Of a stretch of 39,975 nt of DNA, positions 678-10,416 are shown in pieces. The notes under the pieces are model-generated. The model did not search any database. It was not told the origin of the DNA and saw only the letters and a list, made by a program, of their open reading frames with translations. This DNA is from Gemmatimonadales bacterium. GTDB lineage: Bacteria > Gemmatimonadota > Gemmatimonadetes > Gemmatimonadales > GWC2-71-9. A program made the position numbers and the translations under genes. Position 1 is the first letter of the stretch, and each line of letters opens with the position of its first letter. The stretch covers positions 1 to 39,975 of the forward strand of contig JBFJHJ010000030.1 in assembly GCA_041613315.1 (NCBI GenBank), written 5' to 3'.

Positions 678-1385
678 TCAGAATCGGATCTCGTGGACGA
701 TGAGGGCGCTCGCGGTGCCAAGCGCGGCACCCGCGACCACGTCGGAGGGGAAGTGCTTGGCGGCCGCGACGCGCAGCATGGCCACGCCGGCGGCGGACGA
801 CAGCGCGGCAATGCGGAGCGGCAGGCTCCGGTCCCGGCCGTCGAGCCAGTAGCTGACACCGATGGCGAATGCAGCCGCGGCGTGGCCCGAGGGGAACGAC
901 CGGCGGCTCTCGAGATGGCCGACCGCACCAAGGGCATCGTCGGTATAGAGGACGGGACGGTTGCGGGCCGTGAGCGCTTTGGTCAGTTCGGCCGCGGCGA
1001 TCGCCCACGACGCGGCCTCGATCGTCGCGGCGGTGCGCCGGACGCCGGCGCGCTCCAGCCCCCGGGACCACACGGTGGCGCCGGCGAGCGCCGCGAGCGT
1101 TACGGTGCTCACGATCGATAGGTCGTTGTGCACGGGTCGGATCGCCCAGCGGTCGAACGCTGGGACGCCGCCCGGATCGCAGGGGGCACAGGAAGGGGGA
1201 CCGTCGTGGATGTGGAGGATGCGAGGTGCGGCATACGCGAGCCCGCTGCCGGCGACCGATGCCACCGTGCCATAGCCGACGGGGGTCGAGTCGGCGCGTT
1301 CCTGGGCAGCGGCGGGAGCGACTAAGCCGCACCAGAACAGCAAGATAGCCCAAGCTGGCCCGGCCTTGTGTCGGGGCCTGGTCAG
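678..1385 (-). CDS. PAP2-family (type 2 phosphatidic acid/lipid phosphate) phosphatase with signal peptide
   Basis: All three PAP2 motifs: KALTARNRP, SFPSGH, LRVAAAKHFPSD. Start uncertain (CTG 1385 or TTG 1343); the ORF-track start at 1499 overlaps spt. Confidence 0.85.
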   Translation of the reverse strand: MTRPRHKAGPAWAILLFWCGLVAPAAAQERADSTPVGYGTVASVAGSGLAYAAPRILHIHDGPPSCAPCDPGGVPAFDRWAIRPVHNDLSIVSTVTLAALAGATVWSRGLERAGVRRTAATIEAASWAIAAAELTKALTARNRPVLYTDDALGAVGHLESRRSFPSGHAAAAFAIGVSYWLDGRDRSLPLRIAALSSAAGVAMLRVAAAKHFPSDVVAGAALGTASALIVHEIRF

Positions 1386-1458: not shown

Positions 1459-2661
1459 GTGGACACGCAGACTCTCCAGCAAGTCGCCCTGTTTGCCAAG
1501 TGTAAGAACTATACCAAAGCCCGCGAAGTCCAGGCGGCCGGTTTGTATCCGTACTTCAAGCCGATCTCGAAGTCCGAAGACACGGTCGTCGTCATCGAGG
1601 GCAGAGAGCGGATCATGATGGGGTCCAACAACTACTTGGGCCTCACCCATCATCCCAAGGTACTCGAGGCGGCGAAGAACGCGTTGGAGCGCTACGGGTC
1701 TGGCTGCACGGGGAGCCGGTTTCTGAACGGCACGCTCGACCTTCACGAACTGCTCGAGGCGCGCCTCGCCGAGTTCTTCGGCAAGGAGTCCGCGCTCGTG
1801 TTCTCCACGGGTTACCAGGCCAACCTCGGCCTCATTTCCTGCCTCGTGGGTCGCGGCGACATCGTACTCATCGACAAGCTCGACCACGCGTCCATCGTTG
1901 ACGGGGCGAAGATGGCGTTCGGGGAGACGGTGCGCTTCGGGCACGGCAACCTGGAGCAGTTAGAACGCCTGCTGCACAAGCACCAGCAGCGCGGGCAACT
2001 GATCGTCGTGGACGGCGTGTACTCCATGGAGGGCGACATCGCCGATGTCCCCCGCATCCTCAAGCTCGCTCAGCGCTATGGGGCGGCCTTCGCCGTCGAC
2101 GACGCGCACTCGGTCGGCGTCCTCGGCCCTCGCGGCGACGGCACCGCCGCGCACTTTGGCCTGGTGGACGAGGTGGACATCATCGTGGGCACGTTCTCCA
2201 AGTCGCTGGCGTCCATCGGCGGGTTTGTCGCAGCCTCCGAGGGGGTGATTCACTTCCTCAAGCACAACAGTCGGCCCCTGATGTTCACGGCCGCGCTCCC
2301 GCCCGCCAACACCGCCGGCGTGATCGCGGCCCTCGACGTGTTGCAGCAGGAGCCCGAGCGCCGCGCGCGCCTGTGGGCGAACACGCGCCGCTTCCAGGAA
2401 GGCTGCCGGAGCCTCGGGTTCGACATCGGACCGACCGAAACGCCGATCATTCCGGTCCTGATCGGCACCCTGGAAAAGACCTTCATGTTCTGGCGTCGGC
2501 TGTTCGAAGGCGGCGTGTTCACGAATCCGGTCGTGCCCCCAGCCGTGCCGCCCGACCAATGCCGGCTGCGGACGTCGCTCATCGCCACCCACACCCCCGA
2601 CCAGATCGATCACGCCCTGGAGACGCTGGGCCGGCTCGGCAAGGAGATGGGGGTCATTTGA
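1459..2661 (+). CDS. spt: Serine palmitoyltransferase-like PLP-dependent alpha-oxoamine synthase
   Basis: [30 protein letters not shown] and PLP-lysine motif [13 protein letters not shown]-terminus GLYPYF is typical of bacterial Spt. SD GAGGA precedes the GTG. Followed by a bCerS-like gene. Confidence 0.85.
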
Positions 2662-3854
2662 CGCCGGAGGTGGTCGTGCGGCCGGTCACGACGGCCGCCG
2701 ACCTCGAACGGTTCATCGCCTTTCCGTACGCACTCCACCGGGGGGACCCGCTCTGGGTCCCCCAGTTGCGTATGAACGTCCGCACGCTCCTGTCACGCGA
2801 CAAGAACCCGTTCTTCACGCACGCCGACGCGGCGTACTTCCTGGCGCTCAGGCGGACCGGCGGACCGGCGCATCGTGGCGCCGTGTCCGAACGCCCGACC
2901 ACCTTACCTACCTCTCGCCGGGGTGGGGAGGTGTGGGAGACGGTGGGGCGGATCGCCGCGATCCACAACCGCGCCCACAACGCGTTCCACGAGGACACGG
3001 TCGGCTTCTTCGGCTGCTTCGAGTGCGTGGACGACCGGTCGGTAGCGGAGGCGCTGTTCGCCGCCGCGGCACAGTGGCTGAAGGAGCGCGGCCTCACGGT
3101 GATGCGGGGGCCGGCCTCGCTCTCCACCAATGACGAGTGCGGCCTCCTGGTGGAGGGCTTCGACACGCCACCGACCGTCCTCAATCCGCACAACCCCCGA
3201 TACTACGTCTCCCTCGCGGAGCGCACCGGCTTCACGAAGGCGATGGACCTCTATCAGTACCAGACGGTGAGCCCGCAGATTCCCGAGCGACTCCTCAAGG
3301 GCGCCCGTCGCATCGCGGAGCGCAAGAAGCTGACGCTCCGGCGCATCGACATGAAGCACTTCGCCGACGAGGTGGACCGGATCAAGTACATCTACAACGC
3401 GGCGTGGGAGCGCAACTGGGGCTTCGTGCCCATGTCCGACGCCGAGATCGACCACCTGGCCAAGCAGTTGAAGCCGGTGGTCGTGCCGGACCTCATCGTC
3501 TTTGTCGAACGGGAAGGCGAGCCGATCGGGTTCGCGGCGGCGCTGCCCGATCTCAACGTCGCGCTCAAGCGCAATCCGTCCGGCCGGCTGTTTCCGGGCA
3601 TCCTCAAGATCCTGTGGGCGGCCAGGAGCGTCACGCGCATCCGCATCTTGCTCTTGGGGCTCCTCAAGGACTACCGGCGCACCGGGGCCGACGCGCTCAT
3701 GTACCAGTGGATCTGGGAGAAGGGCTACGCCCTGGGGTACCGGTGGGCCGAGGCGGGCTGGATCCTCGAGAACAACATCGCGATGAAGAACGGCATCGAG
3801 GGTATCGGGTTCCAGCACTACAAGACACTGAGGATGTACGACCGCGCCCTGTGA
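2658..3854 (+). CDS. GNAT-fold acyltransferase, bacterial ceramide synthase (bCerS)-like
   Basis: TTG start overlaps the spt stop. Motifs FP..L..GDP.WVP.L...NPFF, GRIAAI, GFFG.FE, GP...[20 protein letters not shown] and GWILENN, plus position directly after spt. Confidence 0.8.
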
Positions 3855-4846
3855 GGGTCTTCATCACCGGCGGCACCGGCTTCGTCGGCTCCCATCTCGT
3901 TGAGACATTGCGCGCCCGGGGCGACGAGGTCGTCTGTCTCGTCCGCGACCCCGCCAAATGCGCCCGCGTGTTCCCCGATCGTCCTCCGTTGAGCGTCGTC
4001 GGCACCCTGGCCGACGACGCCGCGCTGCGGGAGGGCCTCCGGGGCGCCGACATCGTGTTTCATCTCGCCGGTATCATCGCCGCGCGCAGCCGGGCCGAGT
4101 ACTTCACCGTCAACGCCGACGCGACGCGACACCTGGCCGCGCTCGCGGCCCGGGAGGCGCCCGCCACGCGATTCGTCTATGTGAGCAGCCTGGCGGCGGC
4201 GGGGCCGGTGACCCGCGGTCGCGTCCGCACGGAAGCCGAGCCACATGCTCCGGTGAGCGACTACGGGCGCAGCAAGCTCGCCGGTGAAGATGCCGTCCGG
4301 GAGAGCGGCGTTCCATGGACGATCGTGCGGCCGCCCACCGTCTACGGACCGCGTGACACCGAACTGGCGCGCGTGTTCAGCCTCGCCCGGTGGGGCGTGC
4401 TTCCGGTGTTCGGCGCTCCCCATCAGGAGCTGTCCGTGATCCACGCGCGGGATCTCGCCGCCGCTCTGGTGGCCGCCGCGGGCCCGCGCACCAGGGACCG
4501 CGTCTACTTCGCCACGCATCCCTCGATACTCACGGCACGTGAGCTGGTCGAGGCGATTTACCGCGCCGTCGCGCGCGCGCGTGGACGGGACGCCTCGAAG
4601 CGACCGGCGGTCGTGCCACTGCCCGCGTGGTTCACGCGGGCGGCGCTTGCCGTCACGGGGGCGGCCGCCCGACTGGCCGGGCGCTCGACGGTGCTCTCCT
4701 CCGACAAGGGAAACGAATTCCTGGCCGAGGCCTGGACGTGCTCGCCGGAGGCGCTCGGCCGGGACACGGGATGGACGGCCGGCATCGACCACCAGTCGGG
4801 ACTCGACGAAACGGCCCGCTGGTACCGCGAGCACGGCATTCTGTGA
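3851..4846 (+). CDS. NAD(P)-dependent epimerase/dehydratase (extended SDR); candidate ceramide/3-ketosphinganine reductase
   Basis: GTGA overlap. VFITGGTGFVG Rossmann motif, YVSS, catalytic YGRSK, RPPTVYGP. Confidence 0.85.
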   Translation: MRVFITGGTGFVGSHLVETLRARGDEVVCLVRDPAKCARVFPDRPPLSVVGTLADDAALREGLRGADIVFHLAGIIAARSRAEYFTVNADATRHLAALAAREAPATRFVYVSSLAAAGPVTRGRVRTEAEPHAPVSDYGRSKLAGEDAVRESGVPWTIVRPPTVYGPRDTELARVFSLARWGVLPVFGAPHQELSVIHARDLAAALVAAAGPRTRDRVYFATHPSILTARELVEAIYRAVARARGRDASKRPAVVPLPAWFTRAALAVTGAAARLAGRSTVLSSDKGNEFLAEAWTCSPEALGRDTGWTAGIDHQSGLDETARWYREHGIL

Positions 4847-5733
4847 GAGCGGTGGACAAGCTGATCGCCGGATACGTCGTATTCGTCACGGCGGTGATCG
4901 TCCTGCGCGGCGGGCTCGCCACGCCGGCGAACTGGTGGCTGCTGGGGATGCACGGCCTGATCGGGCTGCTCCTCTATCTGTTCACGCGGCTCGGGCCGGA
5001 CGCCCGTGCGGGCCGGTTCCTTCACGACGTATACCCGCTGATCCTCCTCGTGCCGCTCTACGGCGAGATCGGGGTGCTCAGCGTTCAGCTCGGCGTCGAC
5101 AGCACGTTCGCCCGAGACGCCATCGTGCAGCGCTGGGAGGCCACGCTCTTCGGCGGCCAGGTCTCCCACGACTGGATCCGCCGGGCGCCATCGGTATTCT
5201 GGTCCGGATTGTTGCATCTGGCGTACTTCGCCTACTACCCGATCGTGACGCTGGGCCCAATCCTTCTCATCGTGCGGGGTCGGCGCAGCGCGGCGCGTCG
5301 AGTGCTGCTGGCGACGATGCTGGCGTTCGTGATGTGCTACGTGATCTTCGTGCTCTTTCCAGTCGCGGGCCCGAACTACGCCTTCCCGCACCCCACCGGC
5401 GCCGTGCGCGACGTGTGGAGCGCCCGCCTGGTGTACGCGGTCCTGGCAGGAGGCTCGTCGTTCGGGGCCGCCTTTCCGTCGTCGCACGTGGCGGCGACGC
5501 TCGCCTCCGTGGGAGCGCTGGCCCGTGAGTGGCGCGGCCTCGCGGCGGGCTTCGCACTCCCGGCGCTCCTCCTCACGCTGGGCACCGTGTACTGCCAGAT
5601 GCATTACGCCGTGGACGCGCTGAGCGGTGTCGCGGTGGGCGCGCTCTCGGTGTGGGCGGGTACGAAGCTGGCGGCGTCGGAACATCCCGCGGAGGAGCGG
5701 CGGCACGATCCGTCGCCGCCCCACGCCGCGTGA
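4843..5733 (+). CDS. Multi-TM PAP2_3 / Aur1-like (inositol-phosphorylceramide synthase-like) protein
   Basis: GTGA overlap; roughly 6-8 hydrophobic segments. FPVAGP, GAAFPSSHV and TVYCQMHYAVD resemble the Aur1 catalytic motifs; the KxxxxxxRP motif is absent. Confidence 0.7.
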   Translation: MRAVDKLIAGYVVFVTAVIVLRGGLATPANWWLLGMHGLIGLLLYLFTRLGPDARAGRFLHDVYPLILLVPLYGEIGVLSVQLGVDSTFARDAIVQRWEATLFGGQVSHDWIRRAPSVFWSGLLHLAYFAYYPIVTLGPILLIVRGRRSAARRVLLATMLAFVMCYVIFVLFPVAGPNYAFPHPTGAVRDVWSARLVYAVLAGGSSFGAAFPSSHVAATLASVGALAREWRGLAAGFALPALLLTLGTVYCQMHYAVDALSGVAVGALSVWAGTKLAASEHPAEERRHDPSPPHAA

Positions 5734-5735
5734 GG

Positions 5736-6863
5736 TCACTCGTGATGATGTTCCGCCGTAGCCGCGGGCGCGCCGCCCGACGCAATCTCGGCGTACGTGC
5801 CTCGCACCTGTTGCAGGTAGTGCTGGCGGTCAAGCGCGTAGAGGGGGTCCGCCGCGTTCGCCCAGGGCCACATCCGAGCCGTGGACGGCATGAAGACACC
5901 ACCCACGACGCCCATCCCCCCTGCCACCAAGGTGTCGCCCGTCGGGTTCTCGTACGTCACGCTCACCCGGTACGTGTGCTCGGGAACGATCTTGACGCCG
6001 AGCGTCCGGTACAGCCGGCCCAACGTCACGCCGACGAGTCGACCCTCCGCGTCCTCGATCGGGTAGCCGGTCCACAGCACCTCGCCCGTCGTGACATTCT
6101 CGAACGTGATGTTCTCGGCGTACTCATGTAGGTGCCCACCGATGGCCATGACCCGCCCGGGCATCGACGGGCTGGCCTCGTAGGAGCGAGTGGAGCGCCC
6201 GGGCGGCAGATCGAAGGACTTGTCGCCCGCCGGGAAGGCCACGTCGAGTTGGAACGGGAACACCGAGAGGAGCGGCCAGGGCCGCCCAGCCTCCACATAG
6301 TGGAGATCGACGTGCACCGTGACACCCGTGTATGAGCTGGACGTCGGATTGTGCAGCATCGCGGACACCACCATCCGCGTCCCCGCCGGGACCGGATACC
6401 CGAGCAGGAGCCAGGGCATGGACTGCGATCCGGTCTCCTTGCCTACCGCGAGCATCCGCTGAGAAATCGGGAGGAAGAGCTCTCGCCGGTCGGGATTGAT
6501 CAGGTTCAAGTGGTGGATCAGTGCGCGGGGCAGCTGGCGCCCCTCGCTGTCCACCACCTCGTAGCTGAAGCCCGTCAGGTACCCGCTCGCCGGCACCGTG
6601 ACCGTCGTGATGGGCGGGAAGATCGCCCCGCCGTGCACGGCGTGCGGGTCGTGGGAGTGGGAGGCCGCCGCTTCCCCCGGGCCGGCCAAGATGTCCATCG
6701 GTCCAATTACCACGCGATGCACGCCGCGGGCCGGGTCGTTCTCGAGGCGTACCGTCGGCGTCTGACTCGCCGCCGCCGTCGTGAGCGCGGCGATCATGAC
6801 TCCGAGCGCGACCGTGGCGCGGGCGATTGCACGCATCGTCATTCCGTTTGTAGTGGTACTCAC
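5736..6863 (-). CDS. Secreted hypothetical protein with PHM/DBM-like (copper type II monooxygenase) ligand pattern
   Basis: GTG at 6863 overlaps the upstream stop, with SD GGAGG. Signal peptide ...AAAS. Motifs IHHLNL, MLHNP, GGHLH, YENPTG...GGMG; His-rich N- and C-termini. Confidence 0.6.
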   Translation of the reverse strand: MSTTTNGMTMRAIARATVALGVMIAALTTAAASQTPTVRLENDPARGVHRVVIGPMDILAGPGEAAASHSHDPHAVHGGAIFPPITTVTVPASGYLTGFSYEVVDSEGRQLPRALIHHLNLINPDRRELFLPISQRMLAVGKETGSQSMPWLLLGYPVPAGTRMVVSAMLHNPTSSSYTGVTVHVDLHYVEAGRPWPLLSVFPFQLDVAFPAGDKSFDLPPGRSTRSYEASPSMPGRVMAIGGHLHEYAENITFENVTTGEVLWTGYPIEDAEGRLVGVTLGRLYRTLGVKIVPEHTYRVSVTYENPTGDTLVAGGMGVVGGVFMPSTARMWPWANAADPLYALDRQHYLQQVRGTYAEIASGGAPAATAEHHHE

Positions 6864-7579
6864 GTTGTCATCCCTCCAGAGATTCCGCCGGGCGCGAGCG
6901 TCGCTAGGCGCGCCGGCCGCCGCTGCCGCCACGCCCTCACACGCCAGATCACCAAGGCGATGGCTACCGATGCCGCCGCGATGCTTGCGAGCACGCCGGT
7001 GGAGACTTTCCACCAGACGCCGAGCGCCGCGAAGAACCACAAGCGGGGGAAGCGACCCAGCAGCGTGGCCAACAGGTGCCGCCGCACGTCGTACCCGGCG
7101 AGCGGCGATATGAACCGGACGGCCCAATACGGCAAGATGGACCAGCTACAGAGCCAGACCGTGAAGAAAGGCGCGCGATTGAACCACGACAGCACCCGCT
7201 TGACCACGCCGCCCTGCCGAACGTGCTGGAGCGCATCGAATCCCAGCACGCGGCGATAGAGGTGGTAGTTCAAGTACTCGACGTACAGAGTGCCCGCGGT
7301 GCCCACCACGGCCACGAGCAGCGGCGCGTAGGCCCGGCCGAACAGCATGAGAATGGGTTCGTAGGTCGACGGGAGAAGGGGGGCGATCGGGCCGTTGACC
7401 CACATCGTCACCAGGGCGAACCCGACCATCCCGCCGGCGCTCGGCACAAGCACGGTGAGCGGGATCGCGAGCAGCGCCAGTACGCCCGACCCCCGCAGGA
7501 CGCCATCCCAGGTCTCGTTGCCGTAGCGCCGCCGGAACCACACGTCGACGAGGCGGCGAGCCATCCCCTCAACCGTCAT
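6860..7579 (-). CDS. DedA/VTT (SNARE-associated-like) family membrane protein
   Basis: Hydrophobic helices with P.LP..YE and G..G...NY.L.R segments, and a C-terminal LLATLLGRFPR motif typical of DedA/TVP38/YqaA proteins. Confidence 0.65.
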   Translation of the reverse strand: MTVEGMARRLVDVWFRRRYGNETWDGVLRGSGVLALLAIPLTVLVPSAGGMVGFALVTMWVNGPIAPLLPSTYEPILMLFGRAYAPLLVAVVGTAGTLYVEYLNYHLYRRVLGFDALQHVRQGGVVKRVLSWFNRAPFFTVWLCSWSILPYWAVRFISPLAGYDVRRHLLATLLGRFPRLWFFAALGVWWKVSTGVLASIAAASVAIALVIWRVRAWRQRRPARLATLAPGGISGGMTT

Positions 7580-7596
7580 GTCGGTCCAACCAACAA

Positions 7597-7633
7597 CGGG
7601 GAGTCGCACCCGTCAACCCGGCGCGACTCCCCG
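7597..7633 (-). terminator. Intrinsic terminator/attenuator hairpin between the cupredoxin and DedA genes
   Basis: Perfect 11-bp stem CGGGGAGTCGC (7597-7607) / GCGACTCCCCG (7623-7633), followed on the - strand by TTGTTGGTT. Confidence 0.65.
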
Positions 7634-7657
7634 AGCGTTCCCGCCCCGAAACACACG

Positions 7658-8146
7658 CTACGGCTGAATAGTCAGCGTTGCCTTCATGCCCAACGCCAGA
7701 TGAGGCGTGCAGTAATACTTGTATGTCCCCGCCGGCGCTCCGTCGAACATCATTTCGTACATCTGCTGAGGCTGCGTCAGGAGCCGCCCACTGAGAGCGG
7801 CCAGCTTCTGGGCATCGCCCGCGAACTTGCCCTGCAGATAACTCCGGGCGGCCTGTGGCACGCTGTCGGGCCAGAACGCCACGTTGTGTGGGAAGCCGCT
7901 CACGTTGAGCCACCGGACCGTGTCGCCCGGCTTGATCGTGAGCGCGGCCGGCCGATAGACGTACGCACCGGCGTCGGTGAGAAGCATCTCGACCGAGTGC
8001 ACCGTGCCGGTGCCCGCCGCCGCCGGCTGTGCCGCGGCCGCCGCCGCCGGCTGCTGTGCGTCACTGGCCGGACTCCGCTCCGCCGCCTGCTCCCCACCAC
8101 CGCACGCGATCGCGAACACCGCCAGCGCCGCCATGGACTTACGCAT
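7658..8146 (-). CDS. Plastocyanin/azurin-family blue copper lipoprotein (cupredoxin)
   Basis: Lipobox AIAC, Ala/Gln/Pro linker, GDTVRW, PHNV and YCTPHLALGM (type-1 Cu ligands His, Cys, His, Met). SD GGAGG at 8156-8160. Confidence 0.93.
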   Translation of the reverse strand: MRKSMAALAVFAIACGGGEQAAERSPASDAQQPAAAAAAQPAAAGTGTVHSVEMLLTDAGAYVYRPAALTIKPGDTVRWLNVSGFPHNVAFWPDSVPQAARSYLQGKFAGDAQKLAALSGRLLTQPQQMYEMMFDGAPAGTYKYYCTPHLALGMKATLTIQP

Positions 8147-8235
8147 GAACATCATCCTCCTCGCTTGATTTCCGCGTCGGCGCCGTACGCCGGCCCGACG
8201 ACAATTCTGCCGGTCACGCCGGCCGGACAATTGGC

Positions 8236-8253
8236 TTGTGAAACTGTTCACAA
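8236..8253. promoter_or_regulatory. Rex operator (NADH/NAD+ redox-sensing repressor site)
   Basis: TTGTGAA-ACTG-TTCACAA exactly matches the Rex consensus TTGTGAANNNNTTCACAA, an AT-rich palindrome in GC-rich DNA, between two divergent genes. Confidence 0.8.
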
Positions 8254-8338
8254 ATGTAAACGGCTGCCACGGTGATGGAAGGGGGCCGCCGACGAGCGCC
8301 TTGCTTTTTCGCGAGAATCAAAGAACTTCAGGGCGCTT

Positions 8339-9115
8339 ATGCCGACCCCTCCCGCCTGTCGTAGCCTCGGGCGGCAGTGTCGCGAACTCGCGCTGACGCT
8401 CCGCATCGCCGACCTCGCCGACGACGGCCCGACTCTCCAAGATGCCGCGACGACGTGGCTGCTCGGACACACCCGGCGGATCACATTCGGTCGACCGTAC
8501 CGCAAGGACGCCGAGCTCCTCGTCGACGCGACCGTGCACGTGCCCTGCAAGTATCTGGCGGTGGACCACGCGGGCAATGGGCGCCCCGGTGCCAGCTGTG
8601 TCGCCCACGGCTTCTCGGGCTCCCTTCCCACGGACACTCAGCCGGAGACTCCCGAGCCGGTTCGGCGGGGGAACGGAACCTACCGCGTCGCCTTCAAGGG
8701 GAAGGGCCGGTGGTTGGACCTGCCGCTCACCCGCGCGGCCCGGCGTGCGCTCCCGGTCTTGGCCGGCGACAACCCCTGCGCCGGAGCCCCCTGCCGGACC
8801 GCCGACAATTCGGGTGGCGCGGCGTGCTGCCGAGATCTCACGCTCGAGGCCGTCGTGCCTGCGTCCGACGGAGCGCTCGAAACGCTCCTCCGCGCGCGGA
8901 AGTCGCCATATCTCTGCAAAGTCACGCGTACCGATGAGACCACGGTGGAGTGTGAGGTGATCTCCGCCTGCGCCTACTTGGAGACCGATGGGGTCAGCTG
9001 CGGGCTGCACGACCGTTTGCTCCCCAACAATCAGCTCGCTAAACCTTCGATCTGCCGAGAGTGGCCTGACCTGGACGACGACGAGCTCGCGCACCCGGGG
9101 TGCGTCTTTGCGTGA
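8339..9115 (+). CDS. Cysteine-cluster protein, YkgJ/CxxCxxCC-like (putative Fe-S or Zn binding)
   Basis: CAGAPC...AACC, CAYL....SCGLH....KPSICREWP, plus an N-terminal degenerate copy (PCKYL...SCVAH). Confidence 0.6.
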   Translation: MPTPPACRSLGRQCRELALTLRIADLADDGPTLQDAATTWLLGHTRRITFGRPYRKDAELLVDATVHVPCKYLAVDHAGNGRPGASCVAHGFSGSLPTDTQPETPEPVRRGNGTYRVAFKGKGRWLDLPLTRAARRALPVLAGDNPCAGAPCRTADNSGGAACCRDLTLEAVVPASDGALETLLRARKSPYLCKVTRTDETTVECEVISACAYLETDGVSCGLHDRLLPNNQLAKPSICREWPDLDDDELAHPGCVFA

Positions 9116-9120
9116 AACAT

Positions 9121-9238
9121 TATCCGTGCTCCGTCGTCCGCAGGCGGCTGCACTCGCAGACGGTCAGCCAAGCCCGGAAGGGCGGATTCCGGCGCCGGTG
9201 CCGTCCCACGGATAGCGGACAACGGAAAACGGAGAACG
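9121..9238. repeat. Intergenic element with inverted arms of 7-bp tandem units
   Basis: Left arm TATCCGT GCTCCGT CGTCCGC (9121-9141); right arm ACGGATA GCGGACA ACGGAAA ACGGAGA (9208-9235). Confidence 0.6.
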
Positions 9239-9255
9239 TTCGTTCAGGAGCGCCC

Positions 9256-10416
9256 ATGCCCCGCCCTCCCCACGCCCCCGAGATCGCCCCCGACGAACTC
9301 GTCCGTGCCGTCGAGCGCGGCGACGCGCTCCAAGTGCTGGACGTGCGTGCGCCGGCCCGCGTGGCCGCCGGCCGGATCGATCTCGTACCGCCCGCGCGGT
9401 TCCACAACATCGTCGGCTCGCGCCTCCTCACGCTGCGCTCGCCCGACGGCATCGAGCTCGACCGGTCGGTCCCGGTGGCGGTCGTCTGTGGTCACGGCAA
9501 CAGCAGCCGCCAGGCCACTCTCCACCTCAACCAACTCGGCTATACCGCACGCTCGCTCCGAGGCGGGATGGCGGCGTGGATGCTGCTCACCACCCCCCGG
9601 GAGTTGCCACCGGGGCCGGCCCTCGACCGGCTTGTGCAGCTGGACCGTGTGGGCACGGGGGCACTGGGGTATGTGCTGGTGAGCGACGGCGAGGCGTTCA
9701 TCATCGATCCGCCCCGGCGGCCGGACACCTTCGTCGAGGCCGCGCAGGCGGCGGGTGCGCGGGTGGTCGGCGTAGCCGACACCCACTGCCATGCCGACTA
9801 CATCAGCGGTGGTCCGGCGCTCGCACAGCGACTGGCCGTGCCCTACTACCTGCACCCGGCCGACGCGGTCTATCCGTACGACGGCACCCCGGGCACCGTC
9901 CAGTTCCAGCCCGTCGAGCACGGCGAGGCGCTCCGCGTGGGACGCGCGGAGCTGCAGGTCGTCCACACCCCTGGACACACGGCGGGGAGTGTCACCTTCG
10001 TGCTGGACGCTCAGGCAGCCTTCACCGGGGACTTCGTGTTCGTGCAGTCGGTGGGCCGACCCGATCTGGCGGGCAAGACGGAAGAGTGGCTCGAGGACCT
10101 GTGGCGGAGCCTCGAGACGGCCCGGCGAGCGTGGTCGGCGGATCTCATGGTCTGGCCGGCCCACTACGGCTCGGAGGGCGAGCGTCGCCCGGACCGTTCG
10201 GTGGGTGGGCGGTTCGGCGATCTGCCCGCCGGGAACGAGCCGCTCGCGATCGGCGACTTCCCCCGCTTTCGTGCCTGGGTGCTGGCCCGGGCCGGCAGCT
10301 TTCCGGATGCCTACCGCACGATCAAAGCCATCAACATCGGCCTCGAAGCCGCCGACGATCTCCGGGCCGAGGAGCTGGAGGTGGGTCGCAACGAGTGTGC
10401 CCTGGGCGGCGCCTGA
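9256..10416 (+). CDS. Rhodanese + metallo-beta-lactamase-fold fusion (YrkH-like sulfurtransferase/persulfide dioxygenase)
   Basis: SD AGGAG. Rhodanese LDVR...VVCGHGNSS...SLRGGM.AW; MBL DTHCHADY, HTPGHT, FTGD.VF...GRPD, PAH; C-terminal NECA. Confidence 0.8.
   Translation: MPRPPHAPEIAPDELVRAVERGDALQVLDVRAPARVAAGRIDLVPPARFHNIVGSRLLTLRSPDGIELDRSVPVAVVCGHGNSSRQATLHLNQLGYTARSLRGGMAAWMLLTTPRELPPGPALDRLVQLDRVGTGALGYVLVSDGEAFIIDPPRRPDTFVEAAQAAGARVVGVADTHCHADYISGGPALAQRLAVPYYLHPADAVYPYDGTPGTVQFQPVEHGEALRVGRAELQVVHTPGHTAGSVTFVLDAQAAFTGDFVFVQSVGRPDLAGKTEEWLEDLWRSLETARRAWSADLMVWPAHYGSEGERRPDRSVGGRFGDLPAGNEPLAIGDFPRFRAWVLARAGSFPDAYRTIKAINIGLEAADDLRAEELEVGRNECALGGA

Follow-up and report, generated by a model that had tools for sequence, protein, structure and literature searches.

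The question raised by this locus is what four overlapping genes of a Gemmatimonadales bacterium (assembly GCA_041613315.1, contig JBFJHJ010000030.1) make together, and what the fourth adds to the product of the first three. The genes occupy positions 1,459 to 5,733 of the window, the whole 39,975-nucleotide stretch of DNA that was analyzed. Open reading frames (ORFs) 1 to 4 were read as a serine palmitoyltransferase (Spt), a ceramide synthase of the bCerS type, a reductase of the CerR type and a membrane enzyme with the predicted fold of yeast Aur1. The locus is real and conserved and, with good confidence, a phosphosphingolipid operon, and the four genes are likely a single operon, presumably co-transcribed, that makes a phospho-dihydroceramide. 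Homology, fold, catalytic residues and synteny give good support to a ceramide core (ORF1 to ORF3) followed by Aur1-type transfer of a phospho-head group by ORF4. An earlier note on this DNA had proposed this sequence of dihydroceramide synthesis and head-group addition, which stands; its description of ORF4 as similar to inositol phosphoceramide (IPC) synthase holds at the level of the fold only. The pathway of the ceramide core is known; what is new is a clade with the Aur1 fold, apparently uncharacterized, that is linked to CerR in two phyla.

Gene order and its conservation

The consecutive four-nucleotide start/stop overlaps described in the earlier note were borne out at all three junctions (Table 1), and the GC content at third codon positions (0.85-0.92) is of coding type in all four ORFs. 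In the source genome (G000) the locus lies on contig C30. Synteny was compared in the best 80 of 588 ORF4-related loci in GTDB, picked by ORF4 similarity. Of these, 78 are labelled Gemmatimonadota, one Bacillota and one is unlabelled, and the host phylum had been named correctly; relatives of the ORF4 locus are Gemmatimonadota, mostly Gemmatimonadales. Among the 66 loci with at least 3.5 kb of upstream sequence, 64 carry spt, bcerS, the reductase gene and ORF4 in the order of the source, so the arrangement is not due to chance. The exceptions are L062 and L040, and in the genome of the latter Spt is encoded elsewhere. All three other genes are still present in 4 of the 14 loci with less than 3.5 kb upstream.

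The phylum was surveyed with an even draw of 150 Gemmatimonadota genomes plus the source genome, scoring 15 candidates per genome. The counts were tallied by hand, include kin that are not independent and contain two weak ORF4 matches. The Spt clade was found in 90 of the 151 genomes and the ORF4 family in 84: 81 have both, 9 Spt only, 3 ORF4 only and 58 neither. Of 74 genomes in the host's family, 73 have Spt and 67 have ORF4; in family f2 each occurs in 4 of 31, and in families f9-f12 both are absent (0/16). Three other families of the class also have the operon, with the order kept at L211, L212 and L213 and rearranged at L210. No relative was found on viral contigs. Phosphosphingolipids are thereby predicted in 81 of the 151 sampled genomes, which bears on the sources of sphingolipids in soil and sediment; if the reading is true, phosphosphingolipid production would extend to several orders of a phylum abundant in soil and sediment.

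A second kind of cluster was seen at L221 (G096:C9), where a divergent Spt-like synthase (40%) accompanies an ORF4-family gene and a bCerS paralog, together with genes that, judged from sequence, may encode a UDP-GlcNAc 2-epimerase and an MBOAT acyltransferase.

Predicted fold and catalytic residues of ORF4

ORF4 matches PF14378 (PAP2_3) and has about eight membrane helices. Its predicted model, with a predicted local distance difference test (pLDDT) score of 92, was searched with Foldseek, and the best matches were structures of Aur1 (9vj4, E 1.3e-4; 9ivc, E 8.4e-4). In VIA-align the model superposed on Aur1 over 262 aligned positions spanning residues 1-282 (Z 17.4, root-mean-square deviation 4.3) and on LpxE over 161 positions within residues 90-276 only (Z 16.3, root-mean-square deviation 2.7). 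The comparison with Aur1 and PAP2_3 proposed in the earlier note gave the PF14378 match and Aur1 as the best by fold, though Aur1 was non-significant in a profile search (E 0.21). A phmmer search of ORF4 against the PDB gave nothing useful.

The PSxH and HxxxD motifs that the earlier note gave for fungal Aur1 are present in ORF4 as PSSH(215) and H254-Y-x-x-D258. All 22 aligned homologs have H215, H254 and D258, and among 127 distant representatives the three residues are 96-97% conserved. They align with the PSLH and HHYFVD segments of Aur1, i.e. with H255, H294 and D298. These three residues are essential in Aur1 (PMC13133130; this and most papers below are cited from extracts of their text). 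Loops 2, 4 and 6 of ORF4 are rich in Lys/Arg (density 0.18-0.32) and loops 3, 5 and 7 are poor in them (0-0.07), loop 1 being ambiguous (0.15). Aur1 has eight helices with both termini inside and the triad outside (PMC12122681). From the loop charges the ORF4 triad is predicted to lie outside the cytoplasm as in Aur1, at the periplasmic face of the inner membrane.

Two variants of the gene were seen: in a metagenome protein of 638 aa (P0257) an ORF4-family domain is fused to a C-terminal domain (∼350 residues) that matches no Pfam family, and at L229 (G142) ORF4 is in pieces.

A reductase and ORF4 pair in Bacteroidales

A Phocaeicola massiliensis contig matched in a search of plasmid-labelled records encodes a 325-aa protein that is a full-length homolog of ORF4 (hhalign 99.4%, 26% identity). 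The model of the Bacteroidales ORF4 ortholog gave Z 18.1 against Aur1 (287 aligned), 11.8 against SMSr and 11.3 against LpxE. In Bacteroides finegoldii the ortholog overlaps an upstream NAD(P)-dependent oxidoreductase gene, the pair being placed between rnr and dusB. The oxidoreductase aligns end to end with ORF3 (26%, E 6e-32), and the two proteins match ORF3 and ORF4 first in the source genome. The same pair is present in P. massiliensis, across two records, and in Prevotella F0039; in a 1.77-Mb Prevotella record the sole match of ORF3 is the reductase and the best match of the ORF4 profile is the gene directly behind it. ORF3 and the Bacteroidales reductase that precedes the ORF4 ortholog are reciprocal best matches. 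Among gut metagenome loci with at least 300 bases upstream, the reductase stands upstream of the ortholog in 73 of 76, and neither spt nor bcerS was found beside the ortholog in any of 80 metagenome loci. One cluster of the ORF4-type Bacteroidales family includes proteins of P. vulgatus; the Phocaeicola ortholog gave weak matches only in NCBIfam, none of them named LpxF. The pair of reductase and transferase is kept in two phyla, and in one of them the first two genes are located apart from it; this would suit two late reactions of a single pathway, both possibly periplasmic.

Ethanolamine phosphoceramide is made by Bacteroides, but a BLAST search gave no synthase for it; in B. thetaiotaomicron vesicles it is one of the two sphingolipids with the highest abundance (PMC8791184). 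P. gingivalis contains more phosphoethanolamine dihydroceramide (PE-DHC) than any other dihydroceramide, and the pathway was called not elucidated in 2022 (PMC9045371). PE-DHC was unchanged on deletion of BT_1522 (PMC9246714). No gene for a Bacteroides ceramide phosphoethanolamine (CPE) synthase is named in the extracts of two reviews (PMC13510253, PMC11765627) or of PMC9045371. Literature searches, with most subscription journals outside their coverage, gave no characterization of the ORF4 clade or of such a gene, and no report of the operon or of sphingolipid synthesis in Gemmatimonadota. Because the Bacteroides synthase has no assigned gene and the clade adjoins a CerR ortholog, the ORF4 clade is a candidate PE-DHC synthase, perhaps with relaxed donor use. 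It is tentatively proposed that ORF4 represents the missing bacterial CPE synthase family and that the Bacteroidales pair consists of CerR and a PE-DHC synthase; this falls clearly short of an even chance. The operon singles out one deletable gene in a tractable commensal, which makes the question of the PE-phosphoceramide synthase directly testable.

The head-group donor and the inositol phosphoceramide synthases

Phosphatidylethanolamine is the most likely of the candidate donors for ORF4, although its own chance is put somewhat below even. Phosphatidylinositol is an unlikely donor, and phosphatidylglycerol or phosphatidylcholine slightly less likely again. Psd was found in 40 of 40 relatives. 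MIPS was found in 38 of 41 genomes and a strong match to a synthase of phosphatidylinositol phosphate (PIP) in 39 of 41. Both donors look available, and availability therefore does not decide between them. As an observation in its own right, the occurrence of the PIP-synthase-like gene and MIPS in nearly all 41 tested genomes of the order predicts phosphatidylinositol lipids across Gemmatimonadales.

The strongest alternative, though an unlikely one, is that ORF4 is an IPC synthase whose phosphatidylinositol is supplied by the separate PIP synthase and MIPS pair. The known bacterial IPC synthase is BT_1522 of Bacteroides thetaiotaomicron (PMC9246714, PMC8791184). Aur1-like enzymes are already known in bacteria, as is the ceramide core, so the locus is not a new kind of system. 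Membership of ORF4 in the BT_1522 family (NF052609) was rejected, since ORF4 scored 8.8 bits against a cut-off of 480 and its motifs differ; the model has no match in the source genome, and the B. thetaiotaomicron control passes. All 120 BT_1522-type proteins carry PxAPP/PSLH/HH-Y, and yeast Aur1 likewise has PSLH and HHY, whereas the close ORF4 homologs of Gemmatimonadota and Bacteroidales carry PVxGP (240/240) and PSSH (239/240). ORF4 itself reads PVAGP, PSSH and MHY, and M, A, F or Y precedes the second histidine across its clade. With the failure of NF052609 and the absence of PxAPP/PSLH/HHY, the head group of ORF4 cannot be called inositol.

In a quick tree of 42 sequences, which did not include yeast Aur1, the BT_1522 type stands apart from the ORF4 clade on a branch of length 4.3 that carries a long-branch warning; the ORF4 type of Bacteroidales falls within the ORF4 family. 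These sequence comparisons set the clade of ORF4 apart from the known bacterial IPC synthase. Both types occur in Prevotella F0039, whose inositol operon (PgpA-GtrA-PIPS-IPCS, read from translations) holds the BT_1522 type only (NF052609, 394 bits). MIPS also occurs in 7 of 8 genomes from family f2, a family largely devoid of the operon, and a PgpA-type PIP phosphatase was not found in any of the five genomes tested.

On the other side, Aur1 is the best fold match of ORF4, and in the source genome MIPS is overlapped by a PIP-synthase-like gene (152 bits on NF045883, cut-off 170), on a contig other than that of ORF4. No BT_1522-type gene was found in the source genome or in G170. B. vulgatus makes inositol phosphoryl dihydroceramide (PI-DHC) without BT_1522 homologs (PMC9246714), and a BT1522 mutant retains traces of IPC (PMC8791184). 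If the tentative proposal of a CPE synthase family with relaxed donor use is true, an ORF4-clade enzyme could explain both the residual IPC of such mutants and the PI-DHC of P. vulgatus.

ORF4 and the lipid phosphatases

In a second alternative, ORF1 to ORF3 make dihydroceramide and ORF4 is a lipid phosphatase acting on ceramide-1-phosphate, lipid A or a carrier-lipid phosphate. ORF4 belongs to the PAP2 superfamily, its family is annotated in the sources as "membrane-associated phospholipid phosphatase", LpxE is its second fold match and its top, non-significant profile match, and lpxC is present in the source genome. Against this, the extra N-terminal helices of ORF4 are common to Aur1 and absent in LpxE, the Bacteroidales ortholog favors Aur1 by more than 6 Z units, and no recurring kinase gene was seen in the operon flanks, where families were judged from sequences and part were scanned. 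The canonical PAP2 pattern comprises K-x6-RP (C1), PSGH and R-x5-H-x3-D (C3). ORF4 has neither the C1 motif nor the C3 arginine, and C1 is present in 0 of 390 ORF4-clade proteins. Assignment of ORF4 as a canonical PAP2 phosphatase of the LpxE or PgpB kind was rejected on these motifs, all three of which are found in the divergent neighboring gene. A phosphatase role for ORF4 is accordingly considered improbable.

The predicted ceramide core

The reading of ORF4 as an Aur1-type head-group enzyme presupposes a ceramide made by ORF1 to ORF3, for which proteins of the E. coli BL21 spt cluster served as references and as proxies for the Caulobacter enzymes. ORF1 is 41% identical to the BL21 Spt (ECD_02854). 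Its best PDB matches are the serine palmitoyltransferases 8guh and 3a2b, presumably from Sphingobacterium, at 451 bits, with Kbl at 281, BioF at no more than 223 and ALAS at 198. In a quick tree of 24 sequences ORF1 was placed with the Spt of E. coli BL21 and a cut-off-passing Spt of Prevotella, apart from Kbl and BioF, with a Shimodaira-Hasegawa-like approximate likelihood ratio test (SH-aLRT) support of 89; the second alpha-oxoamine synthase of the source genome groups with E. coli Kbl (support 99). The phylogeny suggested in the earlier note thus sets ORF1 with the Spts, and a grouping with BioF or Kbl was not seen. The residues that bind pyridoxal phosphate (PLP) are present in the alignment (H143, D215-x-H217 and K248 in GTFSKS); their roles are established, K248 being the PLP lysine. 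Bacteroidetes-type Spts take acyl-CoA, and AcpR and AasR accompany the type of alpha-, beta- and gamma-proteobacteria (PMC11324152, PMC9386255). No gene for an acyl carrier protein or acyl-ACP synthetase occurs among the genes flanking the four ORFs, as had been noted before; this is expected, since ORF1 is of the acyl-CoA-using Bacteroidetes subgroup.

ORF2 has no Pfam or NCBIfam match, and several of its homologs are annotated as GNAT family. It aligns over its full length with E. coli BL21 YghO (33% identity, E 1e-65), whose sole match in the source genome is ORF2; the comparison with Caulobacter bCerS, made through this proxy, points to an ortholog linked to spt. ORF3 matches PF01370, contains TGGTGFVG and Y138-x3-K142, and is the reciprocal best match, between the source genome and BL21, of the spt-cluster epimerase (epi, ECD_02852; 29% identity, E 1e-33). 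Its N terminus starts straight at the Rossmann motif with no evident signal peptide. yghO (ECD_02850) and ECD_02852 are listed as orthologs of Caulobacter CC_1154 and CC_1164, and both are needed for dihydroceramide (PMC9386255). In Caulobacter, Spt and bCerS are cytoplasmic and CerR is periplasmic (PMC11087976). An alternative reductase, BT_0972, has been reported (PMC9278070). The order of reduction and acylation is therefore still debated.

A 1-deoxy sphingoid base has no C1 hydroxyl, which the head-group enzyme needs. Together with the 170-bit lead of solved serine palmitoyltransferase over Kbl and the placement of the genome's second synthase with Kbl, this makes it very improbable that the lipid is built from another amino acid (e.g. 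with a 1-deoxy backbone) or that ORF1 is another alpha-oxoamine synthase, although ORF1 scores below the curated Spt thresholds, alanine can serve as a substrate of Spt and Spt-like clades extend beyond those that have been tested (PMC11334938).

Off the operon, a further bCerS paralog of divergent sequence (30-39% identity) was seen in G008, G003, G026, G038, G040, G013 and others, and it is the sole bCerS found in G030, G032 and G034.

Points against the proposed reading

Several observations weigh against the reading of the locus as a phosphosphingolipid operon ending in an Aur1-type, ethanolamine-transferring enzyme. Aur1 and LpxE are just 1.1 Z units apart for the ORF4 model, and the profile search placed LpxE (E 0.033) above Aur1, neither being significant. 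The ORF1 score on its top NCBIfam model, SerpalmtaseCFB (Bacteroidetes-type Spt), is 541 bits with a cut-off of 640; the scores on BetaP (422, cut-off 500) and AlphaP (351, cut-off 670) do not pass either, and other Gemmatimonadota Spts likewise fall under the cut-offs of these lineage-specific models. The support of 89 for the placement of ORF1 is moderate and comes from a quick tree. ORF4 lies elsewhere than the other genes in G007 and G026, clusters in G030, G032 and G034 have no bCerS, and solitary ORF4-family genes occur in G102, G130 and G129. The 76 gut metagenome loci are redundant close kin (61-99% identity), and ORF4 is 25-27% identical to its Bacteroidales ortholog, so the donors of the two may differ. 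Finally, psd was not found in the source genome, which is 82.9% complete, and the overlap of its PIP-synthase-like gene with MIPS favors phosphatidylinositol.

Proposed pathway and the fourth slot

In the proposed pathway ORF1 would join serine to acyl-CoA, ORF2 would add the N-acyl chain, ORF3 would reduce the 3-keto group and ORF4 would transfer the phospho-head group of a glycerophospholipid to the C1 hydroxyl of ceramide. The last reaction may proceed in two Aur1-like steps: D258 would activate H254, which would take the phospho-head group and release diacylglycerol, and H215 would then activate the ceramide hydroxyl.

The fourth gene of spt-bcerS-reductase operons differs among hosts. It belongs to the lipoteichoic acid synthase/sulfatase family on a plasmid of Rubrobacter radiotolerans (operon at L118 5698-11290), contains a condensation domain on a plasmid of Streptomyces sp. 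NBC_01001 (operon at L119 5763-10289), both Gram-positive hosts, and encodes a GT4 glycosyltransferase in G115. These differing genes suggest a variable slot for ceramide decoration.

Neighboring genes

Most genes in the operon flanks are unrelated and variable; they were called by a heuristic that missed some ORF3 copies found otherwise. Upstream, the gene for a canonical PAP2 phosphatase diverges from spt and is accessory, outside the conserved core. Homologs occur upstream in 15 of the best 80 of 588 loci and at L222, L223, L227 and L229, and a divergent PAP2 phosphatase was seen in two families. As no PgpA was found in five genomes, this enzyme could dephosphorylate PIP, phosphatidylglycerol phosphate or ceramide-1-phosphate. 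Downstream, an unrelated convergent gene has its stop 2 bases past that of ORF4. It and the copper-protein and cysteine-rich-protein genes have no evident lipid link.

In 10 of 81 loci a gene of the DedA type lies close to the operon. DedA proteins are able to flip lipids. According to PMC11087976, a flippase for sphingolipids had yet to be identified. A gene for a type I phosphodiesterase/nucleotide pyrophosphatase was seen close downstream at L229 (1012-2478) and at four other loci (family 30); its product could hydrolyze the phospho-head group.

Table 1. Features of the locus and its surroundings. Positions refer to the window, except in the last row, where they refer to locus L029.
Feature	Position	Strand	Remarks
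Canonical PAP2 lipid phosphatase	678-1373	-	PF01569; K-x6-RP, PSGH, R-x5-H-x3-D; start codon not fixed
ORF1, serine palmitoyltransferase (Spt), Bacteroidetes-type subgroup	1459-2661	+	GTG start, 400 aa
Start/stop overlap, ORF1 to ORF2	2658-2661	+	TTGA, from sequence
ORF2, bCerS/YghO-type N-acyltransferase (ceramide synthase)	2658-3854	+	TTG start, 398 aa
Start/stop overlap, ORF2 to ORF3	3851-3854	+	GTGA, from sequence
ORF3, CerR/epi-type extended short-chain dehydrogenase/reductase	3851-4846	+	GTG start, 331 aa
Start/stop overlap, ORF3 to ORF4	4843-4846	+	GTGA, from sequence
ORF4, membrane enzyme, predicted Aur1 fold (PAP2_3)	4843-5733	+	GTG start, 296 aa
Conserved downstream protein	5736-7127	-	no Pfam match
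VTT/DedA-domain membrane protein	6860-7609	-	weak Pfam match under cut-off; ∼1.1 kb downstream
Plastocyanin/azurin-type copper protein	7658-8251	-	conserved downstream neighbor
Cysteine-rich protein	8339-9115	+	no Pfam match; conserved downstream neighbor
PIP-synthase-like gene and MIPS (G000:C16, L029)	8750-9448 and 7426-8757	-	overlapping pair

Comparison with known systems

The first three genes are homologous to the ceramide genes of Caulobacter crescentus and E. coli BL21, namely spt (CC_1162, ECD_02854), bCerS/aca (CC_1154, yghO ECD_02850) and CerR/epi (CC_1164, ECD_02852), with identities to the BL21 proteins of 41%, 33% and 29%, the matches of ORF2 and ORF3 being reciprocal best ones. 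Unlike in those organisms, they form one overlapping unit without AcpR or AasR, with an Spt of the Bacteroidetes subgroup and a head-group enzyme attached.

ORF4 resembles Aur1 of Saccharomyces cerevisiae (PDB 9vj4, 9ivc) in its fold over nearly the whole chain, its aligned triad and its predicted topology. It differs in having 16-18% identity, M, F, A or Y in its clade at the position of H293, PSSH in place of PSLH, and no gene for a Kei1-like partner in the operon. LpxE, PgpB and the human ceramide phosphoethanolamine synthase SMSr have the catalytic fold in common with the ORF4 clade (Z 10-16). SMSr, a distinct family of 9-13% identity, and the canonical PAP2 phosphatases cover part of ORF4, and LpxE and PgpB need the C1 motif that ORF4 lacks.

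With BT_1522, ORF4 shares the PAP2_3/Aur1 type and the H-H-D triad (distant homology: 24% identity to a Prevotella member, E 2e-7; hhalign 57%), but it sits in a ceramide operon and not an inositol operon, in a separate clade with different motifs. A protein of 320-333 aa from Bacteroides, Phocaeicola and Prevotella that is annotated as "phosphatase PAP2 family protein" (e.g. WP_237923849.1, behind the oxidoreductase WP_022274854.1) is like ORF4 in PVxGP/PSSH and in its place behind an ORF3 ortholog; it differs by an insertion of ∼25 residues in the catalytic loop.

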